A DNA stretch of 32,000 nt. Source: Enterobacteriaceae bacterium RIT693. GTDB taxonomy: Bacteria > Pseudomonadota > Gammaproteobacteria > Enterobacterales > Enterobacteriaceae. Both the position numbers and the translations under genes were made by a program. The notes beneath the pieces are model-generated. The model worked only from the letters and a program-made list of their open reading frames with translations. It made no database searches and was not told the origin of the DNA. How positions within the stretch are numbered: position 1 is the first letter of the stretch; each line of letters begins with the position of its first letter. Positions 13,209-13,259 of the stretch are shown here, one piece after another. The stretch spans positions 218,794 through 250,793 of the forward strand of contig WJYK01000007.1 of the NCBI GenBank assembly GCA_009668225.1, written 5' to 3'.

Positions 13209-13231
13209 AGGAATGACCTCTTTGACGTAGG

Positions 13232-13259
13232 AATAAAAAAGCCTCGCTTAGCGAGGCTT
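13232..13259 (-). terminator. intrinsic terminator between the spanin genes and the lipase
   Basis: The minus strand reads AAGCCTCGC-TAA-GCGAGGCTT (9-bp GC-rich stem) followed by TTTTATT. The stem starts at the Rz stop codon. The lipase ATG lies about 24 nt after the U-tract. Confidence 0.8.

Follow-up and report, generated by a model that had tools for sequence, protein, structure and literature searches.

A lambda-type cI-pL-nutL-N module at the head of a lysis and lipase operon with an internal terminator in Cedecea

We describe a small operon of the genus Cedecea, about 3.7 kb in length, in which a lambda-type switch is followed by a phage-type lysis cassette, an intrinsic terminator (hereafter T1) that overlaps the stop codon of the spanin gene Rz, and a lipase gene for which no sigma-70-like promoter was detected. 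The interpretation that we favor, with moderate confidence, is that T1 is the internal gate of a single operon driven by pL, with N raising the read-through into the promoterless lipase gene. The operon lies in a stretch of 32,000 nucleotides (the window) from the genome assembly of Enterobacteriaceae bacterium RIT693, which belongs to Cedecea and has Cedecea sp. S5-13 as its closest relative. In the literature that we searched, no paper links Cedecea to tailocins or the lipase to a lysis cassette, and the arrangement as a whole appears to be undescribed. The features of the operon, in the direction of transcription, are the following:

15974-15986, strand not assigned: operator-like palindrome GTACTTTCAGTAC
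15918-15930, strand not assigned: operator-like palindrome GTACTTATGGTAC, containing the cI ATG
15178..15924, minus strand: cI-like repressor (Pfam Peptidase_S24, E=2e-21, and HTH_3), with an S24 LexA-type self-cleaving peptidase domain
15127..15148, minus strand: terminator after cI, CCCGCGAAAGCGGG followed by T8, shielding pL from cI read-through
15034..15075, minus strand: pL-like promoter, with the -35 hexamer TTGACT (15062-15057), a 17-nt spacer and the -10 hexamer CAATAT (15039-15034)
14962..14992, minus strand: nutL, with boxA CGCTCCTTAA (14992-14983), the 6-nt spacer CATCAG and boxB (14976-14962)
14557..14892, minus strand: N antitermination protein, 111 aa (Pfam PF11438, N36, E=2.8e-17)
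14205..14504, minus strand: holin, 99 aa (PHROG 1350, holin, E=8e-16; dN/dS 0.15)
13714..14205, minus strand: endolysin (lysozyme; Pfam Phage_lysozyme, E=7e-40)
13259..13717, minus strand: Rz i-spanin (Pfam Phage_lysis, E=1.5e-36)
13306-13509, minus strand: Rz1 o-spanin, embedded in Rz (Rz1, E=4.5e-14)
13261-13259, minus strand: Rz stop codon TGA, the final two bases of which open the T1 stem
13232..13260, minus strand: T1 intrinsic terminator (hairpin 13260-13238, U-tract 13240-13232), overlapping the Rz stop codon
13209..13231, minus strand: lipase 5' leader, with the Shine-Dalgarno (SD) sequence AGAGG at 13221-13217 and an 8-nt spacer to the ATG
12330..13208, minus strand: triacylglycerol lipase, family I.1-type, 292 aa, without a signal peptide (Pfam Abhydrolase_1; dN/dS 0.04)
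12276..12286, minus strand: remnant GGCGGTTTTTT of a second terminator, T2, the 5' arm of which was lost at a tail-deletion junction, as seen by comparison with the intact T2 of relatives

The lambda-type head, the lysis cassette and the lipase

Judged by its sequence, the head of the operon is a lambda-type cI-pL-nutL-N module. The cI-like repressor, the translation of which shows the Ala-Gly and GDSM/VKR motifs, has a dN/dS of 0.055 (6 genomes). Two operator-like repeats overlap pL (15075-15063 and 15051-15039) and recur as palindromes at the cI start; the pattern GTACNNNNNGKWC has 13 matches, compared to the expected 1.75, and four of these flank the cI gene. The palindromes around cI and pL would be operators of the repressor-controlled promoter region. 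Direct control by LexA was considered and discarded because there is no LexA box near pL. With the start codon of cI located inside the palindrome GTACTTATGGTAC, the cI mRNA may be leaderless, like the one transcribed from lambda pRM; on the other side, there is no cro, and yfhL is found instead.

The pL-like promoter, for which homology with lambda pL places the start site at about 15027, is 89-99% conserved across 13 distinct Cedecea sequences and is conserved in Dryocola as well. Apart from a lambda segment of ~90 nt that is absent here, the leader can be aligned nucleotide by nucleotide with the pL-nutL leader annotated in lambda, and nutL falls on the site annotated there as Nutl. The nutL sequence does not vary within Cedecea, and the Dryocola boxB has a G-U closing pair. 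The boxB of the window (GCCCTGAAAAAGGGC / GCCCUGAAAAAGGGC) is identical to the boxB of lambda nutR. Over its full length, the N protein is 51% identical to lambda N and 53% identical to Sf6 N, with residues 1-27, the arginine-rich RNA-binding motif, nearly identical to those of lambda N. It also keeps the RPILSL.RK motif and the C-terminal GKSIPLI of lambda N, segments that we take to be the NusA-binding and RNA polymerase-binding regions. The sequence hallmarks of the lambda N/nut system, namely, a full-length, arginine-rich N and, upstream of its gene, a boxA followed by a boxB with a 5-bp stem and a pentaloop of the GAAAA/GAAGA type, are all present, in agreement with the first-pass annotation, which had placed a cognate N/nutL pair at the head of the transcription unit. 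The dN/dS of N is 0.14, and the pL leader, nutL and N are 94-100% identical across Cedecea although the synonymous divergence is 0.6-1.0.

Directly 3' of N is the holin gene, followed by the gene for the lysozyme-type endolysin and by Rz/Rz1; the dN/dS of Rz, which is double-coding with Rz1, is 0.31. The first ~100 nt of the holin gene (14400-14503, minus strand) are 97-99% identical across 13 distinct Cedecea sequences, exceeding every other coding stretch of the operon in this respect, which suggests that a further constraint overlaps the coding one at the 5' end of the gene, for example a dual start or a structured RNA element. The lipase shares about 92% identity with the protein in PDB entry 6CL4, 'Lipase C12' (E=6e-178), and hence the enzyme is structurally known. 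Its residues 3-6 align with residues 4-7 of the mature secreted lipases 1EX9 and 1TAH; given that the start of the protein coincides with the mature start of these enzymes, it appears to lack a Sec or Tat signal peptide. In a blastn search of 50,697 phage records for a close relative that would show the genes behind Rz, the similarity found was limited to 300 nt of Rz, at about 70% identity, and relatives of the lipase are present in only four phage records, at 26-43% identity.

The Rz-lipase junction and its relatives

The T1 hairpin, 5'-(G)AAGCCUCGC-UAA-GCGAGGCUU(U)-3' (positions 13260-13238), consists of 9 Watson-Crick pairs and one G-U pair, with 6 G-C pairs in total and a 3-nt loop; its folding energy is -15.4 to -15.9 kcal/mol, and the U-tract, UUUUUUAUU (U6AUU), follows directly on the 3' side. 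Such a G+C-rich, short-loop hairpin with a U-tract on the transcribed strand is the sequence definition of an intrinsic terminator. Under strict criteria (a stem of at least 8, at least 5 G-C pairs and at least 6 T of 8), applied to both strands of the 32-kb window, 4 sites were identified, compared to 0.15 +/- 0.4 in 60 dinucleotide shuffles, so that T1 is more than a chance occurrence; the other three are at 2840-2864 (both strands) and 30047-30067, the last one just past an ORF end. On the minus strand, there is no terminator-like site between pL and T1, so that T1 is the first one reached downstream of pL/nutL. By these sequence features, T1 is a genuine intrinsic terminator, and we infer that it terminates transcription in vivo. 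The claim of the first-pass annotation that the Rz stop codon is part of a strong terminator hence stands, with a stem of 9-10 bp, as does its placement of the lipase SD and ATG about 24 nt further on: the ATG (13208-13206) is 30 nt past the T1 stem and, by our measurement, about 23 nt past the end of the U-tract.

In the minimum free energy fold of the window sequence, the SD is sequestered by pairing, but the other Cedecea variants do not share this pairing, and it was dropped from consideration; the leader also contains the direct repeat ATTCCTA (7 nt), which C. davisae does not keep and which was treated as a chance occurrence. A scan of positions 11800-16300 against Rfam yielded a single match, to asX2, on the opposite strand and at chance level (21 bits against a gathering score of 70 bits, E=0.74).

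A sigma-70 scan of the minus strand from 14723 to 13208 detected no promoter-like site, and a relaxed scan of 13720-13190 (at least 8 of 12 matches or an extended -10), which covered the 530 nt in front of the lipase, was negative for sigma-70-like sites as well; both scans were limited to the sigma-70 consensus. The earlier failure to find a sigma-70 hexamer pair in the gap or in the 3' end of Rz was thus reproduced. The sole promoter-like site upstream of the lipase in the operon is pL. A related 10-kb locus is promoter-poor as well, with 1 site, on the wrong strand, compared to the 6.3 expected. A phage moron has its own promoter upstream of the cargo; here, the lipase is preceded by a terminator and by no sigma-70-like site.

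The element forms an island between yfhL and a rpiR/murR-like gene and occupies the same chromosomal site in all Cedecea loci retrieved, with the order cI-N-holin-endolysin-Rz/Rz1-T1-lipase in 16 of the 16. All its genes are intact, with dN/dS values of 0.04-0.15 for cI, N, holin, endolysin and lipase, and the flanking genes acpS and pdxJ have diverged at synonymous sites to the same degree as the element (dS 0.2-1.1), which together indicate that the element is old, vertically inherited and functional. Between yfhL and rpiR, the window contains no head, terminase, replication or integrase genes. The comparison of these sequences identifies the element as a genus-wide, domesticated phage remnant rather than a recent prophage. 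The first-pass annotation had overlooked this nature of the element, along with the tailocin cluster to which it belongs in other strains.

The T1 hairpin and U-tract are kept in all 16 Cedecea loci, in 9 sequence variants with energies of -14.7 to -17.2 kcal/mol, among which the loop or inner stem occurs in three forms and a single G-U substitution is seen, and the stretch 13243-13214, which spans the 3' arm of T1, the U-tract and the SD, is 98% conserved across the genus. In 15 of the 16 copies, the Rz stop codon is inside the 5' arm of T1, across five variants of the Rz C-terminus. In locus L055 (3265-3476), an insertion of ~155 nt separates Rz from the lipase and the T1 hairpin is duplicated, the Rz-side copy being degenerate and without a U-run and the lipase-side copy intact; the insert has a hairpin of its own, AAAGAGGG...CCCTCTTTTT, that resembles one downstream of the lipase in L001, and may be a small mobile element targeting terminators.

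In every full-length copy of the element that we examined, the lipase is followed by T2 and then by a contractile-tail module, in the order tail terminator, sheath (DUF3383), tube, chaperone, tape measure, Dit-like protein, baseplate plug and hub; a third terminator, T3, follows the baseplate hub and precedes the spike, Baseplate_J, DUF2612 and fibre genes. These full-length elements (13.5-16 kb) contain no head or terminase genes. By their gene content, they are R-type tailocin clusters, apparently undescribed. Such a tailocin with the lambda cI/N switch and T1/T2/T3 is seen in L084 (1-16032) and also in L080-L087, as well as in L003 (5900-10876). T1, T2 and T3 occupy the same three positions in 8 of 8 full-length elements, each 17-30 nt before the next SD-ATG, and hardly any other strong terminator is found within the operon on this strand; none of the three is followed by a promoter-like site in the full-length elements. 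The loops of the three hairpins are variable, and there is one compensatory pair change in T2. The lipase stop codon is 10 nt before the T2 stem, and the T3 stem is about 10 nt past the upstream stop codon (TAATAAATAA). T2 is intact in L003, L004, L005 and L080-L087.

The tail genes have decayed in the window and in L004. In the window, in place of the tail genes of an R-type tailocin, the lipase is followed by an immunity pseudogene and then by rpiR; given that the tail genes missing here are present in L003 and L080-L087, the window carries a tail-less derivative. The orphan colicin/pyocin immunity gene at the tail-deletion site (11923-12176, minus strand; Pfam Colicin_Pyocin, E=1e-24) is interrupted by an in-frame stop codon (TAA, codon 21) and is therefore a pseudogene.

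A MAFFT alignment of the hairpin region across genera was out of structural register, and each sequence was therefore folded separately. In Yersinia-type loci and in a 65-kb provirus, a hairpin with U7-9 is located 25-30 nt before the lipase ATG, and L009, L063, L068 and L069 share the order Q-tR'-holin-endolysin-Rz-hairpin+U7-9-lipase, with the hairpin of L063 more than 100 nt downstream of the Rz stop codon. The metagenomic locus L041, the lipase of which is 84% identical, encodes an S24 repressor and has Q, tR', holin, endolysin, Rz, a homologous hairpin that lacks a U-tract, and the lipase. In L049 (Yersinia intermedia), the lipase is downstream of Q in a decayed lambdoid prophage. Dryocola clanedunensis (L039, 4260-7232) has, at the same chromosomal site, the order cI-pL-nutL-N, hairpin, lipase, holin-endolysin-Rz, with a 69% identical lipase and a hairpin of -18.8 kcal/mol before it. 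The homologues from Serratia, Yokenella, Proteus and Pseudomonas have no such terminator-like hairpin with a U-run. Taken together, the comparisons indicate that the hairpin travels with the lipase, not with Rz, and that the lipase family is found behind a predicted processive antiterminator, N or Q, in several architectures, mostly with a hairpin directly in front.

Several other features of these loci are worth recording. The Dryocola locus has no tail genes after Rz but two unannotated ORFs; a scan of one of them against Pfam and PHROG produced no match. The Yersinia-type loci L008, L009, L063, L068 and L069 contain an additional conserved 10-bp hairpin, CACCGTCGCG-AAATAT-CGCGATGGTG, about 55-30 nt upstream of the U-tract hairpin. 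Some homologous lipases elsewhere adjoin LysR-type regulators. The signal-less lipases of Serratia marcescens and Yokenella-like loci adjoin PirA/PirB-like toxin genes (L051, 6001-11072; L044 and L053, 3500-8450) and are within a few kb of holin_3_3/M15-peptidase genes, or of NlpC-P60 and/or DUF2570 (spanin-like) genes, which suggests that members of the lipase family serve repeatedly as cargo in secretion of the lysis type.

Expression of the lipase gene

Under the interpretation favored here, the cleavable cI-like repressor would control a lambda-type pL that drives a single long operon, with induction following repressor cleavage, and lipase mRNA would be produced only by transcription that begins about 1.8 kb upstream, at pL, and continues beyond T1. 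N, encoded by the first gene of the transcript, would load at nutL and render the polymerase terminator-resistant, thereby suppressing T1 and raising the read-through there and, in full-length elements, also at T2 and T3 into the tail genes. The signal-less lipase would then be released upon lysis by the holin-endolysin-spanin cassette encoded just upstream. Given that T1 precedes the lipase and that a promoter of its own is absent, the lipase is most likely made only when the operon fires. Read-through from pL is well supported as the predicted source of lipase transcripts, a contribution of N to this read-through is likely, and a strict dependence on N is plausible but unproven. Genes located behind three promoterless terminators would be expressible only by read-through, so that the T1/T2/T3 layout carries the classical signature of a predicted antitermination-dependent operon, and such dependence would explain the conservation of N/nutL at 94-100% identity.

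The first-pass annotation had gone further, proposing that only N-modified polymerase reaches the lipase and that lipase synthesis is thereby strictly coupled to the lytic decision. The promoterless lipase behind T1, the pL-nutL-N head, the repetition of the same design at T1-T3 and the Q or N contexts elsewhere all speak for the underlying idea; the word 'only' is not borne out, considering the location of the Rz stop codon in the stem, the lipase halos of uninduced cells, the hairpin without a U-tract in L041, the other homologues that have no terminator-like hairpin with a U-run, and promoter scans that covered sigma-70-type sites. As for the coupling, the lipase does belong to the pL unit, but, with no other promoter detected, it is already tied to cI derepression of pL. 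Because, in addition, the lysis genes are upstream of T1, T1 and N would be a second layer of control rather than the source of the coupling, and are best seen as setting a threshold, a delay or a stoichiometry.

How tightly T1 would be closed when N is absent depends on translation. Li et al. (PMC4824070) found that terminating ribosomes take away nearly all of the function of a terminator when it is only a few bp behind the gene, and the Rz stop codon inside the stem implies that T1 may leak strongly without N. Ribosomes terminating on Rz could, in the extreme, block the hairpin to the extent that translated pL transcripts reach the lipase without N; T1 would then stop only untranslated or uncoupled transcripts and tune the lysis-to-lipase ratio, and N would matter mainly for T2, T3 and the tail genes, which are absent in the window strain. 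Both the persistence of the stop-stem overlap in 15 of the 16 Cedecea loci, through five variants of the Rz C-terminus, and the overlap of the Rz start with the endolysin stop (ATGA, 13717-13714), owing to which Rz is likely to be well translated, are compatible with such masking. In the Yersinia-type loci and L055, however, the terminator is 100-155 nt from the Rz stop codon and still before the lipase; T2 and T3 of the same operon can be masked at most in part, since each stem is about 10 nt past the preceding stop codon; and N/nutL are under purifying selection in the tail-decayed strains (the window and L004), although these deletions may be recent. We regard this degree of masking as unlikely, although it is a serious rival to a strict dependence on N. 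Further down in probability, and in our assessment quite unlikely, is a promoter of the lipase itself that the consensus scans missed, for instance one within the 3' part of Rz or one that requires an activator or an alternative sigma factor (quorum sensing, stationary phase), with T1 merely insulating the gene from the lysis operon. Such a promoter would account for the lipase-positive phenotype of Cedecea without DNA damage (PMC4562240) and for the conservation of the final ~120 nt of Rz, which are 93-97% identical within Cedecea and 30 nt of which are outside the Rz1 overlap, and the LysR-type neighbors of homologous lipases are in line with it; but there is no regulator gene adjacent in Cedecea, the conservation of the Rz 3' end is largely due to the Rz/Rz1 double coding, and no sigma-70-like hexamer pair is found even at 8 of 12 matches. 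Moreover, just 30 nt, SD included, are available between the T1 stem and the ATG, and the L055 insertion adds two hairpins between Rz and the lipase while leaving the lipase-side copy intact.

The hairpin might also have no gating role at all, being an RNA-stability or processing element, that is, a protective 3' hairpin of the lysis mRNA or a 5' hairpin of a processed lipase mRNA, or else a passive relic of the lipase cassette. Its position before the lipase is kept in Cedecea, the Yersinia-type loci and L041 even as the inner stems differ, and the L041 hairpin lacks a U-tract; yet, a U6-9 tract, needless for a stability element, always follows directly in Cedecea and the Yersinia-type loci, and T2 and T3, which precede unrelated genes, are built in the same way. 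This is the least probable of the readings considered, and a very unlikely one.

If this gene is responsible for it, the phenotype of the genus speaks against the preferred reading, with T1 as a gate and N as the factor that raises read-through. Cedecea are characteristically lipase-positive, producing halos of extracellular lipase on corn-oil agar without inducers (PMC4562240, PMC7074957); Cedecea colo is reported to be lipase-negative (PMC7074957), and C. lapagei is lipase-negative too. If the halos come from this gene, either a subpopulation is spontaneously induced or the expression is not strictly switch-dependent. A broader scenario, which we offer as tentative and rather doubtful in its entirety, is that Cedecea kept the cI-pL-nutL-N switch, probably since the origin of the genus, in place of Q to run a lysis, lipase and tailocin operon with three N-suppressible terminators, that the remnant in the window is an 'induce, antiterminate, lyse, release lipase' device, and that the lipase-positive trait results from the altruistic lysis of a spontaneously induced subpopulation.

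If the favored reading is correct, a lambdoid phage stripped to its decision switch and lysis genes runs a public-goods or weapon operon via N, and the diagnostic lipase phenotype of Cedecea has a simple genetic explanation. That a 'terminator-first' lipase cassette is found repeatedly downstream of N or Q suggests a design of general use, in which the cargo brings its own upstream terminator and would be expressed only from antiterminated phage transcription. The system would also link lambda antitermination, tailocins and lysis-based (type 10) secretion, which are usually handled separately.

Comparison with known systems

The closest counterpart of the operon head is the lambda pL operon, with which it shares the leftward order cI, terminator, oL/pL, nutL and N, and the presence of intrinsic terminators further downstream in the operon. 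The two differ in what comes after N: early recombination genes in lambda, but late-type lysis genes, the lipase and, in relatives, tail genes in Cedecea. Unlike lambda, the Cedecea element is without Q, cro and a replication, head or integration module, and is chromosomally fixed and vertically inherited.

In Stx prophages, the expression of stx is Q-dependent and the toxin is released by phage lysis. The common ground with Cedecea is a cargo that lacks an export route of its own, beside S-R-Rz and behind terminators, served (in Cedecea, by prediction) by processive antitermination after SOS induction, and some relatives of the lipase are in Q-tR'-lysis contexts exactly like those of Stx prophages. 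Here, in contrast, antitermination would be due to N acting from a nutL 1.7 kb upstream, the cargo is downstream of the lysis genes, and the element is not a viable phage. In colicin operons, an internal terminator before the lysis gene sets the ratio of cargo to lysis. These operons resemble the Cedecea element in its predicted SOS-type inducibility, in the internal intrinsic terminator and in the predicted exit of the cargo by death of the producer; the Cedecea order, however, is reversed (lysis, terminator, cargo), an antiterminator is encoded and the repression is cI-like.

With R-type tailocins (R-pyocins), the full-length elements share the sheath, tube, tape measure, baseplate, fibres and lysis cassette, and the headless state, whereas the window keeps only the switch, the lysis genes and the lipase, the tail module being fully gone; antitermination is not mentioned in the tailocin literature that we found. 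The Bartonella gene transfer agent (BaGTA, bioRxiv 10.1101/2024.11.20.624540) is likewise a domesticated phage-derived element that seemingly relies on processive antitermination.

As regards secretion, the relevant parallels are the lysis cassettes of type 10 secretion systems (T10SS), such as ChiWXYZ of Serratia (PMC4259817) and YenLC of Yersinia entomophaga (PMC10847048, PMC10101115). These systems share with Cedecea a cassette of holin, peptidoglycan hydrolase and spanin, located outside a functional phage and beside a signal-less enzyme: the holin, lysozyme and Rz/Rz1 described here are not part of a complete phage, and the adjacent cargo has no signal peptide. By this analogy, release of the lipase by the lysis cassette would resemble a T10SS. 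To our knowledge, a lipase has not been described as T10SS cargo. The known systems differ in that they use dedicated activators (ChiR, RoeA), whereas Cedecea has a complete lambda immunity and antitermination switch. The distinctive combination in Cedecea is that N, rather than Q or an activator, is joined directly to late-type lysis, cargo and tail genes within a fixed, headless element.
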